NCBI GenBank assembly: GCA_963808625.1
Contig: CAWEHK010000015.1
Location: forward strand, 14,194-78,193
From: an uncultured delta proteobacterium
GTDB lineage: Bacteria; Desulfobacterota; Syntrophobacteria; Syntrophobacterales; Syntrophobacteraceae
Length of the DNA stretch: 64,000 nucleotides
Direction of reading: 5' to 3'
Made by a program: the position numbers and the translations under genes. Below, piece by piece: positions 19,772 through 43,647 of the stretch (position 1 is the stretch's first letter; each line of letters opens with the position of its first letter). The notes under the pieces were generated by a model. The model saw only the letters and a list, made by a program, of their open reading frames with translations. It was not told the DNA's origin and did not search any database.

Positions 19772-20319
19772 TTTCCTTCCGGGCTGACGAGGGGGACATC
19801 CTCCCTCTTGCCGACGATAACCCTCGCGGGTCTGAGGACTTTGCCATCCTGCAGATATCCGGGCTGAATGACTTCGAGAACGTCCAACAATGGGGCATCC
19901 GGGGATGGTATTGGTCACCACTTCGTGAATTCGCGCATCGAAGGGGATGCCTTCGGCGAGGACCATTTCGATGCCGAAGAAATGGCGAACCGGTGCATTC
20001 GTCTGGTTGACCATTTGCAGCACCTGGGCGTGCTGGCGCGACATCAGCCCGGGATTTCGGAAGGCTCGCTGGAGGTGGAAAAGCGCATCGCAAAGGTCGA
20101 TCAGGGGACCCATGTCGCGCTTCTTTTCCCTGCGGCAGAGGCCTGCTGCTCCCGGTGAACCTCTTCGAGCAGCACGCCTTGCTTCCTGAAAAGCTTCTTC
20201 AGACTTTGCGTTTCTTCGAGAATGAGACGGTGAGGGTCTTCCTCCTCCTCTCCCTCTTCCTTCTTTGGACGCAACCATCCAAGATTTCTAAACCACCCCT
20301 TAACATTTTGATAAGACAT
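19768..20319 (-). CDS. GrpE-like nucleotide exchange factor (frameshifted)
   Basis: GIPFDARIHEVV and, in another frame, VLEVIQPGYLQDGKVLRPARVIVG match the GrpE C-terminus. Confidence 0.85.
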
Positions 20320-21462: not shown

Positions 21463-22473
21463 AGTGGGTATGCACTTTACTCAACCGGCCGTGGAAGAAC
21501 AAAGACATCCGATTTCCGGCATTGATTATCCTGGAACATTCCAAGAGTTTGAGGAATGGTTTCAGCGGCGAAGAGGCCTGCCTCGAATTACATTGTCAGG
21601 CTTCGATGGCCGGAAGCTTTCTGTTGCCCCAGTTGCGGGGATATCACGGAAAGGCCCTCTATGATGGGCCGTGGTCTCTTTCTTTGCAGGAAATGTAAGC
21701 GACAAACTTCCGTTACTTCTGGAACATTGTTTCATAAAACTCACAAGCCGCTTCGAACTTGGTTTTTTGCCATGTGGTTTGTGACAAGCCAGAAGCATGG
21801 GGCCAGCGCTCTTGGCTTGCAAAGGGTTCTCGGCCTTGGAAGTTACAATACAGCGTGGACTTGGCTTCATAAACTGCGCCGTGCGGTGGTACGCCCTGGC
21901 GGGATCAATTGACCGGAGCCATTGAAATTGATGAAACTTATGTTGGAGGCGTGGGACGTAAAAGTCCGTGGCCGAGGTGCTAAGCGGAAATCGATTGTTG
22001 CCATAGCAACAGAAGTTCGGGGACGCGGTCCTGGCAGAATTCGCATGTCGGTTGTTGCCAGATGTTTCCGCGATAAGCCTTCATAAATTCCTTTCGAATA
22101 ACGTGGAAATGGGGCTGAAATCCGGACTGATGGATGGAACGGGTATAATGGCATCGAGAAATGGGTTTCAAGCATATTGTGACAAATATCTCCGCATAGT
22201 GGAGACCCTGCCCATATGGTTATGCCGCGTGTTCATCGTGTTGCATCCCTTTTAGATCGTTGGTGGCTTGGAATTCATCAAGGAGCTATAAGGCCAACAT
22301 CTTGATTATTATCTTGATGAGTTCACATTTAGGTTCAATCGACGCACATCCAAAGCCCGTGGTTTACTCTTCTATCGACTGATGGAGCAAACAGTGGATT
22401 GGTCCCTGTGTCCCGCCAAATGATCGTCGGTGGATCCACACTAGTAGATGGTTGAGCTAACTGCATACCCACT
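21463..22473 (+). mobile_element. IS1595-family insertion sequence (transposase frameshifted)
   Basis: 24-bp TIRs agtgggtatgcactttactcaacc / ggttgagctaactgcatacccact (3 mismatches), 8-bp TSD AAGATTTA at 21455-21462 and 22474-22481, Zn ribbon (CPSCG, CRKC), EIDETYVGG and YLDEFTFRFNRR. Confidence 0.95.
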
Positions 22474-25479: not shown

Positions 25480-25586
25480 AGCGCAAATTCAGGTAGCTTC
25501 TCGCCCCAAAGAACGTTCGATCAGCCGGTCATGACAGCATTGACAAGGAATGCGGCAATCCAGTTTCGTCGATGGTGGTTTCTTGA

Positions 25587-25703
25587 TTACTTGGCTTTTG
25601 GGCCGATGATAACTTTTCCACACTTTGGGCAGGAGACTTTCTTCCATTCATCCATCCAGAACTCATGCTTGCAGTTGCTGCATTTCACTTTTATCTCTGC
25701 CAT
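25587..25703 (-). CDS. 38-aa zinc-ribbon microprotein
   Basis: MAEIKVKCSNCKHEFWMDEWKKVSCPKCGKVIIGPKAK*; AGGA just upstream; below the ORF-track cutoff. Confidence 0.7.
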   Translation of the reverse strand: MAEIKVKCSNCKHEFWMDEWKKVSCPKCGKVIIGPKAK

Positions 25704-25937
25704 GTTTCCTAACCCCCTATTCTCGGTGAAAGAATATGACCCAACTAGGGCGACAAATATATACGGTTACCCAATCTCCCAGAAAATACCACCGCTCCAC
25801 ACAGTTCGACAATTAGCATGCCTGGTTGCCTAATCTCGCTATATTGTACAGGAAGTGCCAAATCTCGGGCACAATGCAGAAAAGCTTGTTACCCAAGGCG
25901 TTGGAGCCTATGGCAGTTAGCCTTGACTACCGATCGT

Positions 25938-27407
25938 TTACTCCGTCATAGCAGCTCTGTCTCTATATTTTATCGTATAGGTTGGATTCTCTAACATGAT
26001 GTTTTGACGAAAGAAATGTTGCAGGTTGTTCAATAGCGAAACGATCTCCCGTTTTCTTGGAGCGGAATCCGGGATGAGATGTTCAAAAAACCCCTGAGAA
26101 ACCCCTTCACCCCATTCATGAACAAGCCTTAATCGTGGAGAATCTAACTTCGGAAATTCCAGAGAGGTTTGGCAGGTGGTTCTCACCTCTATGGCCCGTC
26201 GCTCGCCATTATCAAGAAGCGGGATTTTCTTTTCTCCTCTTTCATCAACAACCGATGAAAGTCGTGGCAAAAGGGTGATCAACTGCGCGCCGGTAAATGG
26301 ATCAGGTGGCGCACTCGCCTGAACCTCGATGTTCTGGCGAGCGCGAGCAAGCTCAGCCTCGGCATCGAAAAATGTGTGAGAGTTCTCGGATAGGGCACAA
26401 GTGATAGCGTGGGATGCCTCTTGTTGATCGCAAAAGAAGTCGCAATTTGAGTCCGCTGAAAGCTCCTGAAGCGACATGCGAGGGGGGGAAGTAAGAGCAA
26501 AGACGCCTTGGGCAGCTTGGTTGTAAGTACAGAAGTCGATCTTTGAAAACTCTTCAAGCTGGGTGTTCTGGGCCTTGAAAAAATATACGGGGACGGGATC
26601 GAAACGATGCAGATATCTTGTTAGATCGCTCACGACCTTTGTCCCAAGATCGCCTTCGCGAAACATCCAGAATATGAACAACGGGGAAATATTGACTGGT
26701 GCATTGTTCTGAAACACAGGCTTCCGCAGCACAATCACGCCTGCCGAGACGTCAGGCACGTGTTTTTTCGCTAGGGGCGCTGCCACGCAACGCCCGAAGA
26801 GGGATGGCGTAAGCGAGTGCATGGGTGCTCTGACATTATCGCAAATCACTTCCTGTTGATCGAGATGATATCTCCTCAAGACCTCTCTGGGTGGGGTCTC
26901 CAAAACCAGGTCGGAGATGAGAAGGACCCCAGCAATTTTTTCATCATTGGCGAAGCGCTCTCCCATTACTTGAGCACACAAGGCCAGGTTGCTAAAATCG
27001 TCAATCATCGCCAAGGGCACGGCTTTACCATTCTTACCCATCCGGTCCGGCAGATTGGCGACACTGTTGCCGATGCCTTGGTGCCTGTAGTTGTTCACGT
27101 GCGATACGTCGCGAAGCCAAAGGCGCTCAAGGAACTCCCAGAGGGCAAAGAGGGCGCTCGCATTCTGATCACCGTGCTTATAATAAGGAGGCATCGATCT
27201 GGAAGTGTCCCAGAAGATCTGAATTTCCCTCTCTGGGAGAGAACTCTGGGAGGTCGAAAGGTCAGGTCCTGTCTGCAACGGCCGGCAGTAGCATTGTTGA
27301 TCAACCGAAGAGCTACAGGAGGCTACCGCGAAGAAAACCACAAGCATAAATGAAAGAATCGCCGTCTTAGATCCAGCTTTGCTGATCATATCCAAATTAC
27401 CGAACAT
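25938..27407 (-). CDS. Putative lipoprotein with vWA/MIDAS-like motif
   Basis: Hydrophobic signal with VASC lipobox; QIFWDTSRSM (DxSxS) and VLLISD; Cys-rich. Confidence 0.7.
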   Translation of the reverse strand: MFGNLDMISKAGSKTAILSFMLVVFFAVASCSSSVDQQCYCRPLQTGPDLSTSQSSLPEREIQIFWDTSRSMPPYYKHGDQNASALFALWEFLERLWLRDVSHVNNYRHQGIGNSVANLPDRMGKNGKAVPLAMIDDFSNLALCAQVMGERFANDEKIAGVLLISDLVLETPPREVLRRYHLDQQEVICDNVRAPMHSLTPSLFGRCVAAPLAKKHVPDVSAGVIVLRKPVFQNNAPVNISPLFIFWMFREGDLGTKVVSDLTRYLHRFDPVPVYFFKAQNTQLEEFSKIDFCTYNQAAQGVFALTSPPRMSLQELSADSNCDFFCDQQEASHAITCALSENSHTFFDAEAELARARQNIEVQASAPPDPFTGAQLITLLPRLSSVVDERGEKKIPLLDNGERRAIEVRTTCQTSLEFPKLDSPRLRLVHEWGEGVSQGFFEHLIPDSAPRKREIVSLLNNLQHFFRQNIMLENPTYTIKYRDRAAMTE

Positions 27408-28185
27408 TTGAGAGTTTACGCTGTTTACGCCTCTGCTCCCTCTCCAGCAATAGCTCCTGCACCTCCTTGAGTTCTCCTAATACCTTTTCTGGAACTGCCT
27501 TCTGTGTCTGGAGTTCTTGGAGACGCTCATAGACTCTCTGGCTGGAGAAAAAGAACACCCCTGCAAGACCTAGAATCGCCCATAACAACCATGAAGAGCT
27601 AGAGGAGGTCCCTATTGAAAGCCAGGAGTGCCCAAAAAAGTCGAGAAGAATAACCGAGATGGGCACAAAGATCAAAAGCCAAGATGTGATCTCCCCAACA
27701 ATAAATGCCCGTGCCTTGATGCTCAAGTCTCGCCTTGCAACCGTCACGTTGTTGAAAAATACCACACCTGCCAAACCCAAAATTGCCCAAACCAATAGCA
27801 AAGTAATAACAGTTTCCTCAAAAATAAAGCGTCCCCAAATCATTTCGATAACCGCAATAACAGATGGAAAAAACAGCAATAACCAACAGAGACTTTGGCC
27901 AAGAATAAAGATGAGGCGTATGCTCGGCGACCGTTCGTCTCGATCCGTCCTACCCGTGGTGAGAAGAAACACACCCAAAAGGCCCACGACTGCCGAAATC
28001 AGCAACAACGGCATGGGAATGCCTTTCAAAATCAGTGGCCCCCAAATTGTCTCAACGAGGGCAGCACCACAAGGAAAGAACAGCAGGAGCCAACACATGA
28101 CATGCCCCAAAACCAAAAGCACAGACATGCCACCTGGTGCTGCCACCTTCCACGATGAATAGGCATCTCGCTTGTCCTGCATCAT
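27397..28185 (-). CDS. Membrane protein with three internal TM-hairpin repeats and a C-terminal coiled coil
   Basis: Three copies of G-x3-(C/S)WLL(L/I)F(F/V)P...GL(L/A)GV. Confidence 0.75.
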   Translation of the reverse strand: MMQDKRDAYSSWKVAAPGGMSVLLVLGHVMCWLLLFFPCGAALVETIWGPLILKGIPMPLLLISAVVGLLGVFLLTTGRTDRDERSPSIRLIFILGQSLCWLLLFFPSVIAVIEMIWGRFIFEETVITLLLVWAILGLAGVVFFNNVTVARRDLSIKARAFIVGEITSWLLIFVPISVILLDFFGHSWLSIGTSSSSSWLLWAILGLAGVFFFSSQRVYERLQELQTQKAVPEKVLGELKEVQELLLEREQRRKQRKLSNVR

Positions 28186-28294
28186 GGGCTTAACTCTTTA
28201 ATATCTAAAGATTTACAATCAAAAGAGACCCAACTCCATGCTTTTTGGCATTCGCGTTTTGGTCGGTTGAACAAAAGGTGAGAACAACACACGT

Positions 28295-29254
28295 CTATTG
28301 AATTCTGACCCTTCCCTTCCGCAGCATAAGGCCGTTTTGGTCGGCAACTGCTGGGCTGACCAGGTCACTAATCGTTGCCACCGGCAGTTTCCTGTCGTCT
28401 TCATCATCAAAGAACTCACGGATATTGGCAAAAAAGTGATGCAACGGTACGAGTAGCACTTCGTTAGAGCCCTCTTGCCGAATTCTTGCCAGGTCGGCGT
28501 TCCCCGAGGCGGGCTCGATGGTGTACCTCGGCGGGATTCCAATGCCCTCGAAAAAGGCTCGCAGTTTGGCAATATCACCTTTGTGGTTTCCACCTTCGAA
28601 AGTCCAGAATGCTCGCCACTGCCTCACCACGATTTCTTCGAAGTTCAATTGCCGGTTACCCGATAACGGATGTGGAAATTGGGGCTTCAGTTCCGATTTC
28701 CGATGTTCTCGAACGGCCTCGGAAGCATTTTGCATCACGTTTCCGGGCAAATTGGCTTGCTTGCTAACCGAGGGGGCTGTTTCGTTTGCCGGAGGCTGCA
28801 CTTCCTCTACCGTTGCAGCCCCAACAGGGAGGGGAAGCATTCGGTAGATGCGTGATAACTGCAAGGTAAGATTGTTTGTTCTGATTCGAATTTCCTTATA
28901 GCTTTCTTCCAGCGCCAGGGTTCGGGCCTCCATAGCCACTACCGTGTCCCAAGCCGTCCCAAGCTCGGGTTTCATAGGTTCTTTATTCCCGAGTTGTCGC
29001 CGTTGTCCAATTTTCTCTTTCGCGATCCAACCGAACGCCACCCCAAGCCCTAAAGCACACCCAAAGCGAGCAAGCGAAATAGGGAGGCTCTCTGGACTTG
29101 GGAACGGCAGCAGGATGGTGAATAACACAAGCATCAACATGGCGATGCCAATAACCCAAATCCGCGTGTTTTGCTTGTGAAAGAAACTCGAGTTCGTGCT
29201 CACGATTATCCCCTCGGCTGGCTTACTTTGTGATGCTTCGAGTCCCTTTTTCAA
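28295..29254 (-). CDS. Hypothetical 2-TM membrane protein with coiled coil and soluble C-terminal domain
   Basis: 4-bp overlap with the stop of the large ORF; two TM segments, a heptad stretch, Pro-rich linker. Confidence 0.75.
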   Translation of the reverse strand: MKKGLEASQSKPAEGIIVSTNSSFFHKQNTRIWVIGIAMLMLVLFTILLPFPSPESLPISLARFGCALGLGVAFGWIAKEKIGQRRQLGNKEPMKPELGTAWDTVVAMEARTLALEESYKEIRIRTNNLTLQLSRIYRMLPLPVGAATVEEVQPPANETAPSVSKQANLPGNVMQNASEAVREHRKSELKPQFPHPLSGNRQLNFEEIVVRQWRAFWTFEGGNHKGDIAKLRAFFEGIGIPPRYTIEPASGNADLARIRQEGSNEVLLVPLHHFFANIREFFDDEDDRKLPVATISDLVSPAVADQNGLMLRKGRVRIQ

Positions 29255-32200
29255 ATGCGATTGGCCCGGGGTCGGTGCCTGAGGTATTCGACCAGGATCC
29301 TAAAGGGGCTCAACTGTAGGGACATCAAAACAGCGTCAGGCAATTCACGTAATTCTGACACCAGATCAAACTGGTCTCGGTCGTCAAACAAGTGGCGACA
29401 CAGCCGCGGAGTGGGCTGGCCTTGGTCCAATAAGAATTCAAGAGACTTTGCCGTCTTGCTCTCAATTCTGAAGGGCAGCTTCTTCTTCCATCTGTAGACA
29501 CTGCATCTCTGTCCCCGGTAAGTTTCTTCACCGTTGTCATGGTAATCGACAATATCCACAAGATTAAAAGTTTTCGGTTTTTTTCTGTAGCTGACCAAAT
29601 CAGCCTCACCCATCTGATCTGCAAGGCGACGGGCAAGCTCTGTCTTACTATCTTCGCTGATCCTGGCCCCCTTTTCTCGTGACTCGATCATCACCCGGAC
29701 CGACTGTTTGCCCTCCCTCAACAACTGATTGGCCCGGTCGTTAATGGTTGCCACATAAGGCTCTATGCTATCCTTAGTCGTTTCATTAAGCATCCAGCCC
29801 ATGCCCAAGAGGTCGATCTTCACAGGATAAACGCTGTCGATCCCGTCTTTCCCGCTCTCGATCAATTCCCCCTCTACCGCAAATGAACCCACTGCGGCGG
29901 GGCTCAAGTCCCTCCTATGACATTTCACCGCGATCGCCGCGGCCCACCGGCTGATGATCTCCCGCGCCAAGTCGTATGCGCCTTGGATTGTCGGATAAGA
30001 TTTGTCCTTGCCTGTGATAATATAGCGCATTGTCTCTTGCGGTTCATATCGAATACGATATAGGAGGGAATGCTCTGCCTTGTGGCCGAAGTCTCGATCC
30101 AGTTGACGCAACAGGTCGTCACCGCCAAACCTGAAACTCTCGGCCCACTGATGCCTTCCAAAACCTGGATAAAAACCACCCCACAGGTCGATAGAACCAC
30201 CGCCAAGGTCAGCGACCACGTAAACGTTGCCGCTGTTAGCTCCGGACGTTAGTTTCCCGGCTAGCGACTCCCATTGAAAATGGTTATCGAACTGGATGCC
30301 GGTCATGGCAGTCAAAGTGGCCGTAATTCTGTCGACATCGTCTTTAAATTTGGGGAATTGGTCCCACATCCGCAAGGGAAGGCCAAAGGTGACGCGAATC
30401 CTTTCGGGGAGTCCATGCTGAAGATCATCCTGCTCCATACCGACCCGAAGGGCCAGGCAAATCTCGATCAAATGAAGCAAGTACGATCTACGAAGCTGCA
30501 GCTGGTGGTCTTCAGACAACCCTCCCTGCGTGGTATCGAACCACTTAAACGATGTGCTGCCGCGACGGCCGCCCCAAACATCCTCATTGATCACTGATTT
30601 TTCCAGCGCATTGATCGTAAAGTCCTTCTTGTATCTCATCCCACCCAATTTTCCTGCCAAGCTAACTACCGTCGGGTTGAGCGAAGTCATTAGAGAGGGG
30701 ACGAGGGCAGATCCAGCCACATTAGGATTAGTGTTGAACGTTGGGAACCAAGTCCATGAGTCCATGGTAGTCCTCTCATCCTTGGTTACCACAAGCGTTT
30801 GATCAAGCTTGGCGGCGGTCGTGATGTTAACGCTTTTGGGACCGGCTTTTGCTGCTACCACTGTACTGTAGGTGCCAAAATCTACCCCCCACTGCTCAGG
30901 GCCAATGAGCCTGCTGACGTCTTTCATAAGTGCCACCCGAAACAAACCCACACCACGAGAGCGGTCAGTATCGTCTCGCAGCAACACTGTAAAAAACGTT
31001 GGTCTGCCGCCTCTCTGGAAAGAGAGCTCCGTTTCACTCAAATCAAACAGGGGCTGCCCAGAATAATGGTGGTGCAATAGTCTCCTTGACAACCCCTGAC
31101 TATTGCTTCCGGTCATGAACACGGCGAGGATGCTGTCCGTAGCGCTGAAATTGGCAAACGCGTAGTAGGCGTTCCATCCGTCCAGCTCGAATTTTGGCCA
31201 GAAAGCAATGGTGCATGGCTGTGGCCTTTGCTCGATCCTTACAGGCCACCTTTCCTCGTCGGGCCTACCCTTCAACTTGAACATGTAGCTGATGGTGGCC
31301 GCTGGCCCACTTATATTCTTGCTGTGCCTGGCTTCGTAGTTGATTAGGTCGGCATAAGCCGCCTTCACTGGATAGTCCGGGTAGATGGGCTCCTCGCCTT
31401 GTTGTAGCGTTACCCTGCCAGCAAGTGGAGCCACGGCGTTGAGCAACACCGCGGTGGTAGCAGGGATAATGTCAAACTCATCGGGCGTATGGATACACCA
31501 TGCCACGGTGCTCTCAGGGGTTCCCTTTTTTGTGTCAGCAAAGCAGAAACCGAATCGAAACCTTGCCACCAAATTCTTATAGAGGTCAGCCCAGACAGCG
31601 ATCCTTTTCTCGTTCCCGTTCTTTGAGAAAAAGATGAATGGTGGACACTTTTTGCTGTCACGCAGAAAATCGACTATCTTTATCACCTCAGTGGGAGTGT
31701 CCTGGGTGCTACTATCCCCAAGAGAGATATCTTTCACCGTTTGAAACCCAAATCGTAGGATCTGTTGTTTCATCTTTTGGCGATTCCGTCTACCCACCAC
31801 GGGCAAGGCCAGAGGCAGCGACGCTGAACCGTTGGACCAACGAATATTGAATAGTTGAGCCTCGTTATCGTCCAAGAGGTCGAACTCAAAGGATGGATCG
31901 TACACCCTTTCACTCGAAAGGTCGGGATGGTTCAGCAAGTATTGAAACCAGTAAGGCTTGTCACTTGAACCATGGAGGGTATCGTGCATGTCGCTCAGAA
32001 ATAGGAGCCACCCTTTAAGGGTCTTCCTGCCCTCCTGAATCCTGCGATCCGTGTCCTGAAGGTGGTCTTCAACTTTCGGCCAGTCGACGCCCGCAGAGGG
32101 GCAAAGCAGAGTCTCTGGGTCGGATACAGCCAGGAGCCCAGGAAAATCCTGGCTGTCGAGGTACAATCCAACCTGTCGCTCAAGGCGATTTGCCTCGTTA

Positions 32201-33948
32201 GGGATGGTCTCATTGTAACAATCAGTCAGAGAGATTTGTCCTTGGCCAATGTCTGGGAGATAGCGGTGTATTATGATTCTGCCGGCGGCCACCCCCTTGA
32301 GGAGCATTAATACCCGCTCGGCAAGCACCTTGCCCTTATCGAACGGAGCCGCCGCATTCGGATCCTCGGAGAAGCGACGCAAGAAGGACTCCAATAGAAA
32401 TCTGATGGAAGCGGTGCTTGGTACTGCGCGGGCATCGATGTGATCCAATCGGATCAGTGTTTCACTGGGCAGTTGATTAGTGATGTTCTCGATAGTGCCA
32501 ATTGCGCTTTCGTTGTATCCCGCCACGTCTTGGGGAAGGGCGGGCATGCAGCGCTCCGCGCTTGTGCGATCTCCGTCTAGGTGATTCGAAAGTGATTTCA
32601 GAATCCAAGCCCTAGGTACACCACCTTCTTGACCCTCAACACTGACCTGCAGCCAATCACGGACATAATCCACACCCCCAAGGTTGCGCAAGGTCCCGCT
32701 TTTCGGTTCGAAATCCAACAGCTGCTTGATTTGCTCCTGGTTTTGGAAGATCGATGGCTGAAAGTCGTGAAGCCGTTTCAGTGCCATCATTTTCAGTTCG
32801 AAAACCTTCTGGACCCGAGCAGTACTTAACTGCATTCGATCCAGGGCAGCGATCACCAGTCTTCCAGGGAAGAGAGACCATCTAACCGATTTAGGCCAAC
32901 GAGTGTAGGTCATGAAAACGGCCAACCGGTAACATAGAGAGACATTCCAGTTGATAAGGTTCGCGAATCGGAATGCCGGTCTAACCTCATCTTTGGCAAC
33001 GGCCACGCCGTTAAAAGTCCAGGCACTGTCCGGAAGGATCAGGTCTCCATCTTGGAGTTGTGGACAGACCATGGTGAAGAGCCCTGTTTCCATGCTGCTA
33101 TTTTGGGAAAAAAGATTTGAGGCTGCGATTGCGCCATAGTAGGGGACGGTCAGGATGTGATGGTAGCTCTGTCGTGTGTCGCTTTGCCAAGGGCGGGAAC
33201 CTGCTCGTTCTATATTAGGATGGCCCAACACCAGCGTCATAGCGAGCTTCTGGAGCTGATCCCGGAAATAAAGAAAAGCGCTGGATGCCCGCGTTTTCAT
33301 CTCCGAATTGCGCCTGTCGGCATCCTCGACGTGGCCTTGGACGGTGTCGCCCCCCAGTCGGAACCAAGGCAGGAACAGGCAGGCCGCAAGTAGCGATGAA
33401 GGATCGCGACGGCTTGCGAGGCTTTCGACGAGACGAGGCAGGCACCCTGCGCCTGTGCCTCCGACCGAGGACCCGGAAATCAAGAAACGGGAGCCCGGGT
33501 TCTTGATCTGATCTCGAATTCTGTAAAAAGGTGTCCCCTTTTCCGTGCTCCATTTGCTGTAGGTATGGTTGAACACTGTAGCGCCTACCGCTGCTTGTCC
33601 ATAATACCCATTCCGATACCTGACCTTTCGTTGTTCCTCGTCAAAAAGCCACTGACGCTGTGGTTCAACGATGGTCTCATTGAACGTATTACCTGTAAGC
33701 GTGTCATCGAAGGGCGCAAGATAATGGAAGCCCTCAACGTTCATCTCCAGGGATTGCATCCGATCGAACATTTCGATGAATTTTTGCCAGGCTGACGTTC
33801 CTTCGTCATCAGATGCATCAGCGTCGAGCAGATAAAAAGTTGGTAGGTGCCATCCGTCCTGGATCAGATAAGACAAGGCGGCGAGATCGATGTATGCCAG
33901 CGCAACGTGCTGTCCCGTACCCCCCACGGCTATGAAATGATTGCTCAC
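29251..33948 (-). CDS. ~1565-aa tubulin/FtsZ-like GTPase fused to an actin/Hsp70-fold ATPase domain
   Basis: GTG start after AAGGGG; N-terminal FIAVGGTGQHV, LLDAD, SSVGGTGAG, LFLPWF; C-terminal WGVDFGTYSTVVA and VVADLGGGSIDLW. Confidence 0.8.
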   Translation of the reverse strand: MSNHFIAVGGTGQHVALAYIDLAALSYLIQDGWHLPTFYLLDADASDDEGTSAWQKFIEMFDRMQSLEMNVEGFHYLAPFDDTLTGNTFNETIVEPQRQWLFDEEQRKVRYRNGYYGQAAVGATVFNHTYSKWSTEKGTPFYRIRDQIKNPGSRFLISGSSVGGTGAGCLPRLVESLASRRDPSSLLAACLFLPWFRLGGDTVQGHVEDADRRNSEMKTRASSAFLYFRDQLQKLAMTLVLGHPNIERAGSRPWQSDTRQSYHHILTVPYYGAIAASNLFSQNSSMETGLFTMVCPQLQDGDLILPDSAWTFNGVAVAKDEVRPAFRFANLINWNVSLCYRLAVFMTYTRWPKSVRWSLFPGRLVIAALDRMQLSTARVQKVFELKMMALKRLHDFQPSIFQNQEQIKQLLDFEPKSGTLRNLGGVDYVRDWLQVSVEGQEGGVPRAWILKSLSNHLDGDRTSAERCMPALPQDVAGYNESAIGTIENITNQLPSETLIRLDHIDARAVPSTASIRFLLESFLRRFSEDPNAAAPFDKGKVLAERVLMLLKGVAAGRIIIHRYLPDIGQGQISLTDCYNETIPNEANRLERQVGLYLDSQDFPGLLAVSDPETLLCPSAGVDWPKVEDHLQDTDRRIQEGRKTLKGWLLFLSDMHDTLHGSSDKPYWFQYLLNHPDLSSERVYDPSFEFDLLDDNEAQLFNIRWSNGSASLPLALPVVGRRNRQKMKQQILRFGFQTVKDISLGDSSTQDTPTEVIKIVDFLRDSKKCPPFIFFSKNGNEKRIAVWADLYKNLVARFRFGFCFADTKKGTPESTVAWCIHTPDEFDIIPATTAVLLNAVAPLAGRVTLQQGEEPIYPDYPVKAAYADLINYEARHSKNISGPAATISYMFKLKGRPDEERWPVRIEQRPQPCTIAFWPKFELDGWNAYYAFANFSATDSILAVFMTGSNSQGLSRRLLHHHYSGQPLFDLSETELSFQRGGRPTFFTVLLRDDTDRSRGVGLFRVALMKDVSRLIGPEQWGVDFGTYSTVVAAKAGPKSVNITTAAKLDQTLVVTKDERTTMDSWTWFPTFNTNPNVAGSALVPSLMTSLNPTVVSLAGKLGGMRYKKDFTINALEKSVINEDVWGGRRGSTSFKWFDTTQGGLSEDHQLQLRRSYLLHLIEICLALRVGMEQDDLQHGLPERIRVTFGLPLRMWDQFPKFKDDVDRITATLTAMTGIQFDNHFQWESLAGKLTSGANSGNVYVVADLGGGSIDLWGGFYPGFGRHQWAESFRFGGDDLLRQLDRDFGHKAEHSLLYRIRYEPQETMRYIITGKDKSYPTIQGAYDLAREIISRWAAAIAVKCHRRDLSPAAVGSFAVEGELIESGKDGIDSVYPVKIDLLGMGWMLNETTKDSIEPYVATINDRANQLLREGKQSVRVMIESREKGARISEDSKTELARRLADQMGEADLVSYRKKPKTFNLVDIVDYHDNGEETYRGQRCSVYRWKKKLPFRIESKTAKSLEFLLDQGQPTPRLCRHLFDDRDQFDLVSELRELPDAVLMSLQLSPFRILVEYLRHRPRANRI

Positions 33949-33980
33949 CGTCAAAGACCCCTTCTGTTTAATCAGTTTGT

Positions 33981-34436
33981 TTAGCGTTTTGATAGCCAAA
34001 CATAAAAGATCGGCAAAAGCGCCAATGCTGTGCCGATAAGTAGGCTTATGATCTGATGGGACGACTGGATGGTCCAGGTGTAGCGAAAGAATGAGCCGCA
34101 ACCCCACCAGATGAGACTCAGCACGAGCAGCCCCCCTATTGGAAACACCGTAACGGCCAAGAGCAATGGTTTTGTCCACAGGTTAGCCCAGCTATAATCA
34201 GGGGGACTGACTTTGGCCAATGCTCGACACTGGCCCATGTGAGCGAAAAGACAGACGAAGCATGCCACGATTCCGCAAAAAACAGGGACTCCGTAAACGA
34301 TCCATCCCCAGAACAAAATCAGCCAGTTGCACGAGCTAGCTGAAGTCGATTGCGCGTGGCATACGTTCCCGATCCATGCCTCGGCGGCAATCAGAATCGG
34401 GACCCCTCTTATGGTCCAGCTAAAGCGTCTTTTCAA
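33981..34436 (-). CDS. Small multi-TM membrane protein, first gene of the tubulin operon
   Basis: TTG start with GAGGT RBS; about 3 TM segments. Confidence 0.6.
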   Translation of the reverse strand: MKRRFSWTIRGVPILIAAEAWIGNVCHAQSTSASSCNWLILFWGWIVYGVPVFCGIVACFVCLFAHMGQCRALAKVSPPDYSWANLWTKPLLLAVTVFPIGGLLVLSLIWWGCGSFFRYTWTIQSSHQIISLLIGTALALLPIFYVWLSKR

Positions 34437-35234
34437 TGGCTTACCTCTGCGACGTCAAAAGGTTACTCCTTTAGAAATGCACAAAAAGGGAACAGCGTAT
34501 TCACCCTATAATTTAGGCTCGGTCAGCCTGTCAAGGGTAAATGGGTGTGATCAAGAGCTTTACCAGCATCCGGTGAAAAAAAAGACTTGAAGCAGGTTTT
34601 TAGGGAGTCTGAGAAAGGACATTTTGGGTGGAAATTGCATTGGGACAGCATGGGAGACCAACTGAGAGGGGGGCCGCGAGAAAACAAAGGAAGATCGAAA
34701 GAGGTTTTCAATGTTTATCCTGAGGTAAGGCAAAGAATCCGGGACTGTCTGCGATCTCCCCGGAGCCAAGAGCAAAATTTAGTAGTCCGGGAGAAAAAAC
34801 CCTTGGAAATCTTCACCGATTTATTGTATTCGAAAGCCGAACCATCTACTCAGGAAGACTATAAACAAGAAGTTCCACCCGAGGGTAACTGTCGGACCAT
34901 GTCGGCACCGAATCACTAAATAGGAACAACATGCGAAGAGTGGCCTATCAAGGATAGCTTCGGAATGTAGGTGCCATGCCGTTTGCGAGCCTGGAAGCCG
35001 GCATCGGAGCATATTCGCAAGGTTAAAACCCCGCTGGCAAAGAAGGCGAAGCAGAGCTCTGGTGCTTGAGTGCAGAAGTAGATCTAGGAATATCCCGCCA
35101 AAGTATGCTGTCATAATTCGCATGGAGCATATTGGAGCTGAAAAATATGGCGATTTATACACCATCTAATTCATCGCTAACGCAGCCTGCTGCGGTGCCA
35201 GCGAAGGGGAAGAAGGCCCAGGGAGAATGCGAAC

Positions 35235-36260
35235 ATGAGTAGATCACCACAGGAACTCGAAACCCAGTATCACAAGCTGGAGGGCACAGCGAACAGGTTT
35301 GCCTTATCGCTAATAGATCAGTTCGGGCACCTCTTGAAAGACCACGACATCCCACTCGGTATTCCCATCGAACACCGGGTGAAGTCATGGGACTCCATAG
35401 CCGAAAAAATCGAACGGAAAGAGATCGGCCTGAACGATCTCACCGAGCTCTCCGACTTCGTGGGGTTACGCCTCATACCACTATTCAAACGAGACGTGCT
35501 CAAAACCAGTGAGATTATCTGCAATAAATTTAGAGTTATCAAAGAGGAAGACCTTGTCAGCCGACTGAAGGAGGACCAATTCGGGTACCAATCCCGCCAT
35601 CTCCTAATAACCATACCGGAAGTCTGGCTCGAAGTGCCGTCGCTCGAGGAGTTTGCGTCACTGAAAGCAGAAATCCAGATAAGGACTCTCGCACAGCACA
35701 TGTGGGCTGCCGCCTCTCACTACCTACAGTACAAACGAGAGAGCGCTGTTCCGTTGCCTATACGACGCTCGATCCACCGCGTTTCGGCCCTCCTGGAGAC
35801 CGCCGACCTCGAGTTTGATCGAGTGCTTGAAGAGAGGGATGCCTACCGAAATAAATTTGAACAGGTGCCGCAGCAAGCATCACTTGACGTCGATCTCCTC
35901 GCACGAGTTCTCGACGATTCTTTGCCAAAAGAGAACAAGGTGCCTCAAGAGCACTACAGCGAGCTTCTTGACGATCTGAAAGCTTTCGGTATTGAGACCG
36001 TGGACGCGTTCCGGGATTTGGTCGTGTCGATGCGTGAGAAGGTTCTTGCACACGAGAGAAAGCAAGTTCTAGACGCAAAGAGAAGAAACTACATCGGCAC
36101 ATCCAAAGAGCGCAATGACCGGGGTCTCTTCTTCAGCCACGTAGGCCTTGCTCGACAGGCTTTGATAGAGAAGTTTGGGAAAGATAGATGGGAGAAATAC
36201 TTTTCGCAGATAAAGCAGAAGAAAGAAGGCTCGGATGATCACGAATCAGCACACCATTGA
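35235..36260 (+). CDS. RelA/SpoT synthetase-domain protein (small alarmone synthetase-like) with C-terminal extension
   Basis: RVKSWDSIAEKIERK, DFVGLRLI, FGYQSRHL, AEIQIRTLAQHMWAAASHYLQYK. Confidence 0.9.
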   Translation: MSRSPQELETQYHKLEGTANRFALSLIDQFGHLLKDHDIPLGIPIEHRVKSWDSIAEKIERKEIGLNDLTELSDFVGLRLIPLFKRDVLKTSEIICNKFRVIKEEDLVSRLKEDQFGYQSRHLLITIPEVWLEVPSLEEFASLKAEIQIRTLAQHMWAAASHYLQYKRESAVPLPIRRSIHRVSALLETADLEFDRVLEERDAYRNKFEQVPQQASLDVDLLARVLDDSLPKENKVPQEHYSELLDDLKAFGIETVDAFRDLVVSMREKVLAHERKQVLDAKRRNYIGTSKERNDRGLFFSHVGLARQALIEKFGKDRWEKYFSQIKQKKEGSDDHESAHH

Positions 36261-37364: not shown

Positions 37365-38933
37365 TTACTGATCGTCGATAGTCGTTAGGGAATCAGCCAC
37401 GGCCAATCCCCCACAAACCCTGGCATGCGACTTGATCGTGGAATCCTTTTCCCGACTCCTCAGGGGGACAGATTGAAACATCGATGGGGCTGAGGAGCTG
37501 AAACCAAGGTTCTCCGTTATGCTCCGGCTCAGCCCAAGAGCGTTCTGTTTGTCACCATGCACCACATAGACGTGTTTCGTTTTGGAAAAATGCGAGAGCC
37601 ATTCCAATATTTGGCAGCCATCGGCATGCGACGAGAACATGCTGAATGTCTTTACTTTCATTTTCACGGGCCTCTCCACGTACCTGACCGTTTTCCTTCC
37701 GCCAATGTACTCCTCGATGGGAATACGGACCATTTTCGCGCCTTCCTGAAGCTTCCCACCCAGACTGCCGGGGGCTTGCCAACCAACGATCGCAAGGAGA
37801 TTCTTCGGGTCCTCAATCATGCGCTCCAAATGCTTGGGCGCGTTGCCATGATCGAGCATTCCACTGGCCGATAGATAGATGGAGGGAGTGTGGCTGTCAT
37901 GAGTTTGTAGTGATTTAGCGCTTGAGGTTTCCGAGATACCGGGGAATGACAACGGGTCACCGTGCAACGAGAGGTGCCCTAATGCTTCCCCATTGTAATA
38001 CTTGGTATAGCGCCTGTAGACCACGTTGATACTTTGGGCCGTGGCACTGTCAAGAAATACCCGGGTTTCTTTTGGGATTACTCCATCTCGCTTCAATTGT
38101 CCGATTATATAGAGCAATTTTTGCGTCTTCTCCAGGACAAATGCCGGGATGAGAACGCTGCCGCCCTGACTGAGAGTATCTCGAACCGCTTTGCCAAATT
38201 CGACGAAATTCATTTCTCCGCGCCGGACAGTTCCATAGGTGGATTCCACAAGGATGTAATCGGCGCTGGTGATGACAGCGGGGTCTCGCAAGATGGGAGT
38301 GTTCCTGTTGCCGAAATCGCCGGTCGATACGAGTTTAATAGTTTCGCCCCCGTGCTTCACCCACAATTCAATCATGGCTGATCCCAACACATGTCCAGCA
38401 TCTCTGAAAACTACAGACACATCGGGCGACAAGTTCACCATCTGATCGTACGAGACAGTCATAAACTGGTTCATGGCTTGAGCATAGTCGTCCCAGTCGT
38501 ATACTGACATTCCATGCTCTTTGGCGATGTTCATGGTCATTTCAAGCATGATCGCCAGGAGACTCTTGGTCGCATCGGTCCCAACGACTTTGCCTTTGAA
38601 CCCTTTCTTGTAAAGGAGGGGAATCCGCCCCGAATGGTCGATATGAGCATGGGTCAACAAAACGTAGTCGATGGTCGAAGGATCGAAATCAGTTTCCCGG
38701 TTATTTTCCTGATTTTCCGACCCATAGAAAAGGCCAAAATCGATAATGAGGCGAGTACTACCGGTGTCGACCAAATAGCAGGACCCTCCCACCATTTGTG
38801 CAGCTCCCAGGAACTGAAGATAAGGAGGATCAACTTTTGCGTAAGATTCTGGGGCAAGAAGAAAGATGAGGATCAACGCCGAATAGACTAATCGGAGTCT
38901 CGGTGCGCCATTCTTGATTGTCATGAATTTCAT
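37365..38933 (-). CDS. MBL-fold beta-CASP nuclease with predicted N-terminal signal peptide
   Basis: THAHIDHSGRIP, AGHVLGS, VESTYG, FSSHAD, VHGD; N-terminal RLVYSALILIFLLAPESYA|KV; exact start uncertain (38933 or 38924). Confidence 0.9.
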   Translation of the reverse strand: MKFMTIKNGAPRLRLVYSALILIFLLAPESYAKVDPPYLQFLGAAQMVGGSCYLVDTGSTRLIIDFGLFYGSENQENNRETDFDPSTIDYVLLTHAHIDHSGRIPLLYKKGFKGKVVGTDATKSLLAIMLEMTMNIAKEHGMSVYDWDDYAQAMNQFMTVSYDQMVNLSPDVSVVFRDAGHVLGSAMIELWVKHGGETIKLVSTGDFGNRNTPILRDPAVITSADYILVESTYGTVRRGEMNFVEFGKAVRDTLSQGGSVLIPAFVLEKTQKLLYIIGQLKRDGVIPKETRVFLDSATAQSINVVYRRYTKYYNGEALGHLSLHGDPLSFPGISETSSAKSLQTHDSHTPSIYLSASGMLDHGNAPKHLERMIEDPKNLLAIVGWQAPGSLGGKLQEGAKMVRIPIEEYIGGRKTVRYVERPVKMKVKTFSMFSSHADGCQILEWLSHFSKTKHVYVVHGDKQNALGLSRSITENLGFSSSAPSMFQSVPLRSREKDSTIKSHARVCGGLAVADSLTTIDDQ

Positions 38934-39116
38934 CGAATCCAACTCAATTTTCTTTCTTTCGATACCGTAACAACAAAATGGCGCCAAAAACTCCTCCACC
39001 AAATCATGGCGAACCGCCAAAGCCCGCCGAAGAATAATGGTTAATAAAATATCCAGTAAGCAACGACGCTGGCGAACCAGGTCCACTATATTGAAATGTG
39101 AACCAAATCACTAGAA

Positions 39117-41255
39117 CTACTGATATTTAGTGGCCAACGCTTGGAGCTTCCTTCTGAAGTTGCCAGGAAGCGCTTCGCCGCTCTTGCAGTTTGGGTTGAG
39201 CAGCATTTTGGCGAGCGCGGCTGCGATTGGGCCTTCTGCACCTAGCTCATCCAAGTCTTTTTCGAAAATGTCACGGTTAGCCAAGCCAAGTACCGCGTCG
39301 CCATCATTGCACACAGCCGGCTCCAGTTCCAGGGCAAGCTTTTCAGCATACAAAGGAATCTCCAACTCTGTGAGGCAACATTTGTCAGGTTCTGGGGCGT
39401 AGCCACATAATGGAAAAGGAAAATTTTGGTCGGAGTCTTTGCTGCAGAGCACATACCTAGCCACGCCTGCCCTTCCCAAATGGTCAGGCTGGGCAGTGGT
39501 CTCGTCCATTCCACCAAAAATATGTTCCAGCAACTTTTTGTCGCTCACGTTCTTTTTGAGGTCTTCCTTCAAATTGTAAAGGTCCTCCTCGCACGACGGC
39601 CTATGATCAACGTCTCGGAGGTCACAGCAACTCACTGTGGTGCGATCAAATTTGCCTTTGGAGATGCATGCTTTCTTAATGTTTGCACCCTGCAGATATG
39701 CCTCTCGCATATCCGTGCCCTAGAGTTTCGTCCCCGACAGGTTCGCCCCTTGGAGCTGAGCCCTCCAAAGATCTGCGAACTGTAATTCCGCAGAACGTAA
39801 GTCTGCACCCTGCAACCGCGCCTGTCTCAATACTGCCCCCTGCAGATGAGTACGGTTTAGGTCCGCACCCTGGAGCTGTGCCTCCGTAAGCTGCGCCCCC
39901 TGGAGCTGTGCTGCATTCAAATTCGCACTCTGCAGCTGTGCCCGCGTCAAGATCGCCCCCTGCAATCTCGCTGCTCCCAGGTTTGCGGCCTGCAGCAGAG
40001 CCTGATGCAATATTGCCCCCTGCAGATGAGTACGATATAAGTCCGCACCCTGCAGCTGCGCAAGTGAGAAATCTACACCGTTAAGTTTTGCGTCGCGCAA
40101 AACGGCTTTAGGAAGAACGGCTTTGCTCAGATTTGCACAGCACAAGTCACGACCTTGGAGGTCCAGGCCGATTACACTCTTTAGCGCGTTCTCAACGGTT
40201 TTTGGATCCTTGCTTCGGAGTGTCTCCATGACCTCCGCCGACGGCTCGCCAGCAACAAGGATCTTTCCCGATAGTTCGAGGCATCGGTGAAATGGTGCCC
40301 CATCCTTCTCAAAAAGCCAAACAGTGAGGGCCAAAGATACGTTGTCAGATATCGCTCTACGGCTTGGCGCTTCAGAGCACCAACTCGCTGGAACAACGCG
40401 CAGCACGAAGTCTTCCATGCGTTCGCCGGGCAGAACGGCAACGAAAAAGGAGAATACAAGAACGATTAGACTCGTCAGCGTCAACGCAAGTAGCCCATGA
40501 ACAGGTTGCTCCCGTTCTTTGGAGGTGGTCGCTTCCGGTTGATGCTTTGTTTGTCCATCGAAGGATATCCGAATGATCCGGACCTTTGCCAGGAGGTCTT
40601 TCATCAGCAGGCTGGGCCTGGTAATTAACTCTAACCACCAGCGGCGTGCCCTGCCATCTGGCGTCACAATCATTGGCCAGAACAGCCACAGCAATGCTAG
40701 GTCCAGCCCGACGGCCGCACGCTGGAGCCATGTTAACATTTCATCATGATAAGGTAGAAAGCGAGCCTGCGCCCAAATCAGCAGAACGAGAGGAAGGAGA
40801 ATTACCGTTACCCAGACAACAAGCGCCAGTAGGGATCGCATGAACCTCCCATAGCGGCAAACCAGCATCTGACTTAAGGGAAAGGAGAAAAGGCGCGTAC
40901 GCTGTTCCTCTTGGTATTCCTGATCCGCAAGCCTAGAGATGGCCGCATTAAGCAGGTGAAGCTTCCGCGATAACAAATATAATTGCAGCAGCAAATTGAA
41001 GTGGAGCAACACATAAAGCCAGGGAACGATAATGTAAAAGCCTACAATCGGAAGACCTACATTGAGAATCGGCAAGGTGACCAGGCTCAACTTGAGCAGT
41101 TGCACGTCCCTCGTTGAGCCGATGATAACCGCAATGTATAACCCAACCGAAAGGAAGGTGAGGTACACCTTCTGGACGTGATCTGCCGCAGTGTCAACCG
41201 CTTCCCGCAGGCGATTCGTCCGCTCCCATTGTGTGTCTTGCTCCGTAATCCTCAC
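39117..41255 (-). CDS. Multi-TM pentapeptide-repeat protein (frameshift near 39720)
   Basis: About five TM segments, then many AQLQG/ADL pentapeptides; continues in ORF 39117-39710. Confidence 0.85.
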
Positions 41256-42586: not shown

Positions 42587-43647
42587 TCACCGATCCCTGT
42601 GGCCATTTGATTCAATGCGGATCGGATAGCGCGCTGCAAAACCTCCCCAGTCGCCATGTCGGTAGCCGATAACCGATTCATGGCGCAGATCGTACGGTAG
42701 TTCGGGGAGCATCTGGTCGCCTGCTGCAAACTCGCAAAGGAGGATCACCTGCTTGCCTTGTGCGTGCGAAAGTCCCAGTTCATACATCACATTGGCATTG
42801 TTACCGGTGATAACGGCAAGACCACACGTTGAGGTCCGGATCGCTCCATACAGTGCGCTGACCACATCACCCACCAGGTCGAGCTGATCGATCCTGACCG
42901 GCAAGAAGCCACAGGTTTCGATCTCGGGCTTGATTGCCTGGCAATAAAGGGGAAGGAATTCGGGACCAAATGGCATCATGACGAAGCACTTTCTTTTGAG
43001 CTGGTGGAGCAGGTGTTGCCTGACAGCGCGGGAGAGTGCGGCGATTTGTTCCCCGGCAAGATCCCTCAATGACAATGCCTCCCAAGCCAGCGCTGTTTCT
43101 GGATCAATCTCGAACCACTCACAAATGATCGCCTTGTTTTCATGCCAGCGAACACCAGCCACGCCGCCTGTGAACGGCAGGGGCAGGATTGGCTTTTCCA
43201 GTGCCAAAGCTAGGTCTATAACTTCTCTGGTTCCTTTAGCACCCTCAATCGCAACCATCACATCTACGGAGCCCACAAGTTTAAAGCGGCGTGACTGAAG
43301 GCTGCGGCCGTAAAGATGGGTGACGATGCCTTCCTTGAATCGCACAATGTTTGAGGAGTCCTTCTCCGGGTCCGCCAACAGGGTTTCAATGTGGTTTTCC
43401 ATCGCGTCTCCGCGTGCCTTCAACGACGCGCAAGCCCCTTTCACAAAAGACCAGTCGCCGGATGGACTCCCAGCGTCGTGAACAAAGCCCTTGAAGCCTC
43501 CGGTTACCAGCATCAGGCCCTCTTCGAGCGCCAGTTGTGCCCCGAGACTCTCGGCAAAGAGGGCATTCTCAGGCCGAATACGGGTCCCTCCACATAATCC
43601 TATCCGTCGGCGCCGAACTGCCGAAGAAAAGTTTCATCCGAATCCAT
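42587..43647 (-). CDS. SLOG (LOG/DprA-like) domain fused to a nucleoside-deoxyribosyltransferase/TIR-like domain
   Basis: RIGLCGG...LGAQLA...LVTGG...VAIEGAKGT...KPILPLPFTGG, then CFVMMPF...NANVMYELGLSHAQGKQVILL...LPYDLRH; 5' end apparently frameshifted. Confidence 0.7.

Follow-up and report, generated by a model that had tools for sequence, protein, structure and literature searches.

The FtsZ/tubulin and the actin/Hsp70 folds are the two great nucleotide-driven assembly folds, and they are normally found in separate proteins. Divergent FtsZ-like proteins have been described in the FtsZl1 operons, in which FtsZ-like, vWA and OmpA genes were predicted to encode membrane-associated machines, and whose FtsZl1 protein consists, according to the main text of that study, of an FtsZ-like domain, a long coiled coil and an alpha-helical C-terminal domain (Makarova and Koonin, 2010; PMC2875224). 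Tubulin_2 proteins were said, in passages of a later study, to have an "irregular domain architecture" (Santana-Molina et al., 2023; PMC9871819), and tubulin and HSP70 themes were found in vWA- and GTPase-centered conflict systems, where, in the passages concerned, they form separate, non-overlapping neighborhoods centered on DO-GTPases/GAP1 (Kaur, Burroughs, Iyer and Aravind, 2020; PMC7159879). Here we analyzed a stretch of 64,000 nucleotides from an uncultured delta proteobacterium (contig CAWEHK010000015.1, positions 14,194 to 78,193; hereafter the window), which carries one gene whose product unites in a single polypeptide an FtsZ-like GTPase and an Hsp70-like ATPase, with a middle module between them, and which by sequence belongs to a large unannotated clade of such proteins. 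We suggest, with a probability of roughly 0.5, that this gene and its neighbors form an envelope-spanning, nucleotide-driven sensing machine that most likely acts as a conflict (anti-phage or anti-invader) system.

The window protein resembles FtsZl1 and Tubulin_2 proteins in its divergent FtsZ-like N-terminal domain with T1 and T4 loops and in its sporadic distribution beside a canonical FtsZ in the same genome, and it resembles FtsZl1 further in its OmpA-type and membrane partners, with the vWA-type partner recognized here by motif only; in contrast to FtsZl1, it continues after residue 467 with a middle module, a beta-strand-rich domain and an Hsp70-like ATPase (compared with the main text of PMC2875224). 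The DO-GTPase/GAP1 systems likewise bring tubulin- and HSP70-family proteins together with vWA and membrane proteins in a sporadic pattern, and the authors read them, in the passages concerned, as NTP-dependent conflict systems (PMC7159879). Searching these sources for a precedent, we found no occurrence of Hsp70, DnaK or MotB in the main text of PMC2875224 (supplements outside), none of Hsp70, actin or "fused" in the passages of PMC9871819, and no mention of a tubulin-Hsp70 fusion in those of PMC7159879 (supplements and source data outside). A wider literature search, with most subscription journals and the supplements of PMC2875224 and PMC7159879 outside it, likewise found no description of a tubulin/FtsZ-like-Hsp70-like fusion.

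In the list of open reading frames (ORFs) of the window, the fused gene occupies an uninterrupted frame on the minus strand that runs from 34179 to the stop codon at 29251-29253. Translation probably begins at the GTG at 33948, because GAAGGGG lies 9-15 nucleotides upstream of it, because the preceding membrane-protein gene, which overlaps the first 77 codons of the frame starting at 34179, stops at 33981, and because the homologue P0003 begins at the equivalent residue. The resulting product of 1565 amino acids occupies exactly the coordinates (29251-33948) at which the initial annotation had placed one polypeptide with both NTPase folds, and the four motifs named there were all recovered: FIAVGGTG at residue 5, SSVGGTGAG at residue 160, GVDFGTYST at residue 1021 and ADLGGGSID at residue 1246. 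That annotation had also cautioned that an indel error could create an apparent fusion and had called for independent full-length homologues. A word-indexed protein search returned two, P0003 (1565 amino acids, 65% identity, 100% coverage) and P0004 (1516 amino acids, 27% identity, 92% coverage), both of them colinear with the fused protein, and contig scans added 27 metagenome loci and one locus from a genome collection, where the scan used just two peptide patterns, the probable reason for its low yield. Six further loci had single open frames of 1430-1638 amino acids holding both motif pairs or the second Hsp70 motif.

The size of the family became apparent from an exhaustive HMMER search with a 21-sequence N-domain profile against 1.84 billion representatives, which gave 1913 relatives at E ≤ 1e-3, 1035 at E ≤ 1e-10 and 147 at E ≤ 1e-30. 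Among the best 150 of the 1913, taken as representatives at 50% identity, 52 had at least 1200 amino acids, nine had 700-1199, 85 had 400-699 and four had fewer than 400. The 52 long forms ranged from 1285 to 1747 amino acids, and 48 of them carried both DxG[TS] and DxGGG[ST] beyond residue 700. Sequence comparison thus confirms the fusion as real: full-length colinear homologues, together with 52 fused forms among the best 150 relatives, exclude an indel artefact for practical purposes. The idea that a sequencing indel joined two or three neighboring genes in this metagenome-derived genome could draw on the draft state of the source assembly (54 contigs, 84.6% complete), but the frame is without interruption, an independent homologue at 65% identity has the same length and is colinear, the fused representatives come from many sources, and six more loci repeat the single frame, so that we consider it vanishingly improbable.

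Across an alignment of 50 full-length fused homologues, with about 20-30% identity to the window protein, residues G163, G164, T165, G166, D1023, G1025, E1227, D1247, G1249, G1250 and D1254 were invariant and G9, G10 and G12 were at least 90% conserved. At such low identity, this invariance argues that the four NTPase motifs are not there by chance, and it offers clean point mutants for functional tests. Scans of the whole fused protein with Pfam, NCBIfam and PADLOC matched no model, and a PDB sequence search with a three-sequence profile returned two chance-level matches alone (E about 0.5); a sizeable unnamed protein family and its operon are thus invisible to current annotation, with no curated model recognizing the window protein. 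As a hydropathy scan found the fused protein without a hydrophobic segment, it is presumably cytoplasmic.

AlphaFold2 modeling of the N-terminal module (residues 1-467) from an alignment of 103 family members gave a predicted local distance difference test score (pLDDT) of 84.5 and a predicted template modeling score (pTM) of 0.89. In a Foldseek search of PDB with this model, the listed top 50 matches were all FtsZ, tubulin or CetZ, with E values from 7e-5, and 77 matches reached E ≤ 1e-3. Upon VIA re-alignment to S. aureus FtsZ, we obtained a Z score of 17.3 with a root-mean-square deviation (rmsd) of 4.0 Å over 221 aligned residues, and residues 1-327 of the model spanned FtsZ 12-306, which would correspond to both FtsZ subdomains. 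The helical extension behind this core ends where the stand-alone homologues of about 460 amino acids end in an alignment with the split proteins described below. At the level of single sequences, PF00091 (Tubulin) was matched at E ≤ 0.01 by 62 of 103 family members (best 5.2e-8) and PF13809 (Tubulin_2) by 61 of them (best 5.9e-10); the window N domain itself gave no match to PF00091 at E ≤ 0.1 and none to PF13809. The 467-residue split homologue at locus L014 reached 32.7 bits for PF00091 (E 1.1e-7, cut-off 33) and 27.1 bits for PF13809 (cut-off 27).

The conserved columns of this family are GGTGQ (residues 9-13), D42/D44, G114..P119..G122, GS..GGTGAG (159-168), W195-F196 and G242, which we take overall to be the T1-T5 loops of FtsZ, and G163, G164 and G166 are invariant across the 103 sequences. 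The window protein accordingly reads GGTGQH at residues 9-14, DxD at 42-44, GxxGxPxVG at 114-122 and VGGTGAG at 162-168. We assume GGTGQH to be the T1 loop and GSxVGGTGAG (159-168) the T4 loop of FtsZ, and DxD and GxxGxPxVG to be T2-like and T3-like, respectively; a valine precedes GGTGAG, versus the S, A or G of the classical signature. Binding of GTP by the N domain is likely, and a polymerization-activated GTP hydrolysis may or may not accompany it. The canonical division FtsZ was ruled out as the identity of the fused protein, since the source genome has its own FtsZ on another contig; a PF13809 search of the source genome gave no match. The canonical FtsZ gene (G000 contig C26, 35495-35975; L030 and L031) gave two overlapping Pfam Tubulin matches in different frames, at 127.1 and 31.5 bits, which suggests a frameshift or an assembly error in the draft at that place.

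The C-terminal module begins well before its first Hsp70 motif, as BLASTP aligned window residues 851-1417 with residues 126-710 of the 883-amino-acid split protein of L014 (E 1e-13). Its AlphaFold2 model (residues 835-1565, 65-sequence alignment) had a pLDDT of 88.4 and a pTM of 0.91, and Foldseek listed DnaK, Ssz1 and BiP first, followed by BeeR, MreB and MamK, with E values from 5.6e-8 and 488 matches at E ≤ 1e-3. For model residues 181-620 (residues 1015-1454 of the protein), VIA gave Z 14.1 and an rmsd of 3.3 Å over 276 residues for MreB (4czk) and Z 13.2 over 294 residues for DnaK, with FtsA, PilM, Hsp110, EutJ and ParM within 1-2 Z; MreB, FtsA, PilM and DnaK are structurally tied within about 1 Z. 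The module thus shares the fold of Hsp70 and other ASKHA proteins (DnaK, MreB, FtsA, PilM, ParM) at Z 12-14 over about 250-310 residues. Comparison of profiles was more selective: hhalign placed the C-module profile against six bona fide Hsp70s at 95.95% (E 5e-9, 199 columns), and a 50-sequence full-length profile against Hsp70 at 95% (E 3.9e-8). By sequence, the C module therefore appears closer to Hsp70 than to actin, and structure does not choose between them. A Pfam HSP70 scan of the fused protein gave no match, so that this kinship is visible from profile to profile only.

The landmarks of the ATPase domain comprise VDFGT (D1023), FKW (K1135), ES-A (E1227), DLGGGS-D (D1247, D1254), S..GG (S1271, G1275), LLG-GW (G1382, W1385) and K1435, among which K1135, S1271, G1382, W1385 and K1435 are also invariant in the 50 fused proteins. 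We take the invariant residues to be the phosphate-1, catalytic Lys/Glu, phosphate-2, adenosine and connect motifs of Hsp70, and since these Hsp70-type site residues do not vary, the ATPase module is probably active. Like Hsp70 (PF00012), it has the phosphate-1, phosphate-2 and connecting motifs with conserved Asp, Glu and Lys; unlike Hsp70, it is preceded by a beta-strand-rich domain, is followed by no recognizable substrate-binding domain or lid, and is fused to an FtsZ-like module. The beta-rich domain holds PDxPV and WP motifs that are conserved in fused and split forms, and the tail has a conserved SP...E near its end. Pfam matched no Hsp70 substrate-binding domain or lid on the fused protein, and few DnaK alignments reached model residue about 713, adding few aligned residues. 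An ESM Atlas search with residues 835-1565 returned 30 matches, 29 of them "hypothetical protein" clusters (three listed, of 706-745 amino acids) and one a Ppx/GppA cluster, which we treat as leads only.

The domain parse by AlphaFold2 and Foldseek, together with VIA, hence agrees with both fold assignments of the initial annotation, FtsZ/tubulin in the N-terminal part and actin/Hsp70 (ASKHA) in the C-terminal part. Its further description of the two as cytoskeletal NTPase folds is borne out for the folds but not for their cytoskeletal nature; the C domain is Hsp70-like by sequence, and no FtsZ-type T7 motif was seen among the conserved columns. Following the view of Makarova and Koonin for FtsZl1, one could picture a membrane-remodeling or cytoskeletal machine, housekeeping or developmental, that shapes, constricts or vesiculates the envelope: the FtsZ-like domain would polymerize on the membrane, with the actin/Hsp70-fold domain likewise building or controlling filaments, and both would act in concert with the wall anchor and the membrane proteins. 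The two-subdomain FtsZ fold of the N domain and the presence of the filament formers MreB, FtsA, BeeR and MamK among the structural matches of the C domain favor this possibility, as do the OmpA-type and vWA-motif partners, which recall FtsZl1 operons as described in the main text of PMC2875224, and the separate canonical FtsZ in the genome, which would make the fused protein part of an accessory system. The C domain is, however, not MreB-like by sequence, a T7-type motif was not seen, and the covalent link within 1565 amino acids would limit the geometry of two different filaments. We regard such a machine as doubtful, and return to it below with the distribution of the family.

Between the two NTPase modules lies a middle module that could be traced through its split relatives. 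At six metagenome loci (L009, L010, L014, L019, L020 and L022), the three parts are encoded side by side as separate genes, first N, then middle, then C, with FtsZ-like proteins of 450-527, middle proteins of 551-582 (550-610 as a wider bracket) and Hsp70-like proteins of 836-883 amino acids. Upon comparing a profile of 50 fused proteins with one of 6 middle proteins, hhalign gave 96.5% (E 9.1e-10, 159 columns), aligning window residues 500-679 with residues 36-206 of the split middle protein; by extrapolation, the middle protein would begin at about residue 465 of the window protein. BLASTP found no such link and a shallower 7-sequence profile gave 5%; the middle module had no Pfam or PDB sequence match, and an ESM Atlas search with residues 468-1010 gave nothing usable. 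The fused protein thus joins the products of three genes and is colinear with all three split genes.

This bears on the in-frame ATG at 32547 (MPALPQ, residue 468), with GGAG 6 nucleotides before it, which had been proposed as an ancestral junction between two genes. Because the middle protein would start at about residue 465 and the stand-alone N proteins end opposite residues 440-467, M468 does lie on a true module boundary, that between N and middle modules. The ancestral genes would number three rather than two, however, and the ATG with its GGAG is probably not a relic, as the fusion is older than a clade of about 20-30% identity and M468 is not conserved in P0004. In an unrooted FastTree tree of 138 N domains, 53 of them from fused forms, a branch with 98% local support united 52 fused rows and two short rows, which may be fragments, and one long-branched fused outlier lay elsewhere. 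The fused/split label changed 4 times on the tree versus 42.4 times in shuffles. The fusion is thus old, and the fused forms make up essentially one clade; on an unrooted tree, a single fusion looks the same as a single fission. The partnership between the two NTPase domains that the fusion had been taken to imply gains support from the split operons, which encode the parts as adjacent genes, and the occurrence of the joined form in at least 52 clusters at 50% identity alongside split relatives is a textbook sign of physical and functional coupling.

In the window, the fused gene belongs to a tightly packed operon of five minus-strand genes with overlapping ends at two junctions, which is convergent with a plus-strand pair (Table 1). 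The gene for the 151-residue membrane protein is the first of the operon and ends 32 nucleotides before the fused gene. Small multi-transmembrane proteins occupy the same position at other loci (clusters c9, c17 and c4), their likeness to the 151-residue protein being positional. The start of the 319-residue protein overlaps the stop of the fused gene; this protein matched no family in Pfam, PADLOC or NCBIfam, and BLAST gave no link to the cluster c16 membrane protein found at the same position in L017, L023 and L027. The predicted lipoprotein carries DTSRSM (DxSxS, resembling a metal-ion-dependent adhesion site) and a later SD motif, and is homologous to the lipoprotein of the split operons (hhalign 94.9%, E 4.1e-8). 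It matched nothing in Pfam, NCBIfam or PADLOC, and the split-type lipoproteins had no Pfam match and their profile found no PDB sequence; as neither lipoprotein type has a Pfam or PDB sequence match, the label vWA-like refers to motifs. The 304-residue protein of the plus-strand pair matched the PADLOC ZorB model (E 3.5e-16, 57.4 bits) and scored 25.3 bits with Pfam OmpA (cut-off 27.2). The gene directly upstream of it encodes a 613-residue protein that is ZorA-like in predicted architecture, with a weak, tail-only match to PADLOC ZorA (best E 1.3e-4) and no match to Pfam MotA_ExbB. A promoter and terminator scan of 25500-35300 found sites no more frequent than in shuffles.

Table 1. Features of the fused gene, its modules, its cassette partners and two nearby elements, in window coordinates.
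Feature	Position	Strand	Basis or description
Whole fused gene	29251..33948	-	1565 amino acids, GTG 33948 (likely start) to stop 29251-29253
FtsZ/tubulin-like core, residues 1-335	32944..33948	-	AlphaFold2 model, Foldseek, VIA, conservation
Helical extension of N module, residues 336-467	32548..32943	-	Model secondary structure; alignment with split proteins
Middle module, residues 468-834	31447..32547	-	hhalign against split middle proteins
Beta-strand-rich domain, residues 835-1014	30907..31446	-	Strands at model residues 42-170, high pLDDT
Hsp70/actin-fold (ASKHA) ATPase domain, residues 1015-1454	29587..30906	-	AlphaFold2, Foldseek, VIA, hhalign
C-terminal tail, residues 1455-1565	29254..29586	-	Model and alignment; mixed strands and helices
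Small membrane protein, 151 amino acids	33981..34436	-	3 hydrophobic segments; ORF list, hydropathy scan
319-residue protein	28295..29254	-	1-2 N-terminal hydrophobic segments; ORF list, hydropathy
Multi-pass membrane protein, 262 amino acids	27397..28185	-	Hydropathy; no significant family match
Predicted lipoprotein, 489 amino acids	25938..27407	-	Signal-peptide-like hydrophobic segment followed by Cys
MotB/ZorB-like protein, 304 amino acids	24565..25479	+	One N-terminal transmembrane helix with Asp (WPAYADMMFVLF); OmpA-type peptidoglycan-binding domain
Coiled-coil membrane protein, 613 amino acids	22684..24525	+	3 hydrophobic segments, ~370-residue coiled-coil tail
118-residue ORF, IS1595-type transposase zinc ribbon	21556-21909	+	E 2.1e-9; edge of lower-GC stretch
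Separate Hsp70 set	15641-20278	-	744-residue Hsp70, 698-residue protein, 106-residue protein

Partners were counted by all-against-all BLAST of ORFs in seven fused-type loci (the window, L002, L006, L017, L023, L025 and L027). An OmpA-type/MotB-like partner (cluster c3) was present in all seven, forming part of a 684-residue protein in L025, and a lipoprotein in six of seven. A membrane/coiled-coil gene lay directly upstream of the OmpA-type gene in four of seven by cluster; in the window and L002, singletons took that place. PADLOC ZorB (MotB) models matched all six OmpA-type proteins tested, and the transmembrane Asp motif was found in all six inspected. Matches of the coiled-coil proteins to ZorA models were weak and confined to the tail. 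The 684-residue protein of L025 (15044-17098) carries its OmpA/MotB-like domain (residues 584-655) in its C-terminal part and may have arisen by joining of the coiled-coil gene to the MotB-like gene. Near some copies, we observed FHA, PP2C phosphatase and Ser/Thr kinase domains (L002 7711-9771, L008 2853-3962, L017 3403-4233), with an FHA domain heading the coiled-coil protein in L002, and kinase, PP2C and FHA genes occur among the flanks of other loci; the kinase association reported for FtsZl1 operons is echoed by these genes.

In the split-type operons, the three core genes are followed by a protein of about 110 residues, a lipoprotein with DISGSM and TDG motifs, and, at the end, a canonical Hsp70. 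Four of the six split loci also encode a protein that starts with a zinc ribbon and has a J-domain-like "NHYEVL" stretch; L014 has a 1329-residue TPR protein in its place. Comparing both types, the shared core would consist of a small membrane protein, the FtsZ-like, middle and Hsp70-like modules, and the lipoprotein, and the stator-like pair falls outside this universal core because the split-type operons are without it.

The canonical Hsp70 and the zinc-ribbon/J-domain-like protein of the split operons also speak for a different role, that of a self-contained, chaperone-like assembly device serving the biogenesis of an envelope structure rather than sensing. With the preceding beta-rich domain binding clients, the Hsp70-like module would load oligomers of the FtsZ-like domain, hold them or take them apart; otherwise, the target would be the exported lipoprotein or the membrane partners. 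Homology to Hsp70 at the profile level, with every catalytic-type residue retained, fits such a device, as does an operon for an Hsp70, a 698-residue protein and a DnaJ-like protein that lies about 2.4 kb from the cassette in the window. That separate set, which may or may not be part of the system, encodes a 744-residue Hsp70 (Pfam E 2.2e-131) with an N-terminal extension of about 176 residues, a 698-residue protein without a family match and a 106-residue protein with a weak DnaJ match (22.6 bits). Yet the nearby set is absent from the other six fused-type loci, Pfam detects no Hsp70 substrate-binding domain, DnaK alignments past the ATPase domain gain few residues and no nucleotide-exchange factor was seen in the cassette, and we consider a chaperone-like device of this kind improbable.

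The fused protein was not found in 40 related genomes. With the N-domain profile at E ≤ 1e-10, we obtained matches in 2 of 401 sampled genomes of the phylum, the source genome itself and one with a weak match (6e-12). Named members elsewhere were all "hypothetical protein", including some from Bacteroidota metagenome-assembled genomes, and the L002 record is labeled uncultured proteobacterium. Within the window, the GC content is 0.485-0.53 over 20-44 kb versus 0.55-0.59 on both sides (8-20 kb and 44-50 kb), and the 118-residue IS1595-type ORF is probably an insertion-sequence remnant. A phage-type integrase adjoins the L002 copy and a TerB protein the L025 copy. The pattern resembles that of a self-contained, horizontally moving cassette rather than that of a clear defense island. 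For a remodeling machine, this distribution cuts both ways: the flanking genes are mostly non-defense, but occurrence in 2 of 401 genomes of the phylum and none of 40 relatives would be unusual for a housekeeping shape system.

A hint of mobility or conflict comes from this sporadic occurrence across several phyla, the lower GC content, the IS1595 fragment, the integrase beside L002 and the TerB protein beside L025, while a link to the envelope follows from the conserved MotB-like protein with its transmembrane Asp, the lipoprotein and the flanking membrane proteins. We therefore favor an envelope-spanning sensing machine. Disturbances of the envelope would be picked up by the lipoprotein together with the stator-like pair, which would be anchored in the wall and driven by ions, and would be signaled to the cytoplasmic fusion protein by way of the coiled-coil tail and the small membrane proteins. 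The FtsZ-like domain of the fusion protein would then assemble or switch upon binding GTP, and its Hsp70-like module would hydrolyze ATP to clamp and release, or to remodel, a target. A parallel for the membrane part is Zorya, in which ZorA and ZorB work with effectors. As in Zorya, a MotB-like peptidoglycan-binding protein with a transmembrane Asp follows a membrane protein whose tail is a long coiled coil, near large nucleotide-dependent cytoplasmic proteins; since PADLOC is without a generic MotB model, its ZorB match does not separate ZorB from other MotB relatives. A possible, tentative elaboration is that the cassette represents an unrecognized class of envelope-surveillance (anti-phage) system, in which a wall-anchored, ion-driven ZorAB-like stator and a periplasmic vWA-type lipoprotein would trigger the cytoplasmic megaprotein. 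With GTP-dependent self-assembly of its FtsZ-like part and an ATP-driven, Hsp70-like clamp, this covalent dual NTPase of tubulin and actin folds would serve immunity, as its effector or as a signal amplifier, instead of forming a cytoskeleton. If defense or envelope sensing proves true, the stator logic of Zorya would extend to a new kind of effector, and Tubulin_2 proteins, unexplained since 2010, would gain a testable role.

Several observations weigh against a sensing and conflict role as we read it. The window protein's own sequence stays below every Pfam threshold. No NxDxxD-like T7 motif is found in the columns that at least 60% of the 103 sequences share, and the window protein has R220 and H263 where the family has N (93 of 103) and E (85 of 103). 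The vWA assignment of the lipoprotein has its support in motifs, and no PADLOC model matches either this lipoprotein or the fused protein. The transmembrane region of the 613-residue protein reached just 4% against MotA/ExbB by hhalign, though aligned at the expected helices, and the ZorC, D, E, F and G models of PADLOC were unmatched among the scanned cassette and neighbor proteins. The MotB-like pair occurs in none of the six split-type loci, which carry instead a canonical Hsp70 (Pfam E 1e-71 to 1e-87) and a J-like zinc-ribbon protein. The flanks in related loci are varied and mostly metabolic or housekeeping, with no clear defense island.

Two assignments to described systems were rejected. 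Membership of Zorya types I-III was set aside, as no effectors were found among the scanned neighbors, and a DO-GTPase system was likewise discarded, as a motif scan for Walker A (GxxxxGK[ST]) found none in the 24 partner proteins checked.

Further genes in the window lie outside the cassette. A RelA/SpoT-type small alarmone-synthetase-like protein (35235-36260, plus strand; Pfam RelA_SpoT E 2.4e-19; PADLOC PDC-S33, a candidate defense family, E 1.5e-15) is encoded divergently, about 800 nucleotides upstream of the operon. Two beta-CASP metallo-beta-lactamase proteins of RNA/DNA-nuclease type (7092-8705 and 37365-39086, both minus strand) flank the region; next to the second of them are a pentapeptide-repeat protein (39720-41255) and a protein with a weak match to the SLOG family (42587-43513). 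A phage-type integrase (58142-58981) and a protein with an Mrr-type restriction endonuclease domain (62350-63489), close to the right end of the window where the GC content falls to 0.447 (60-62 kb), may form a separate mobile or defense islet.

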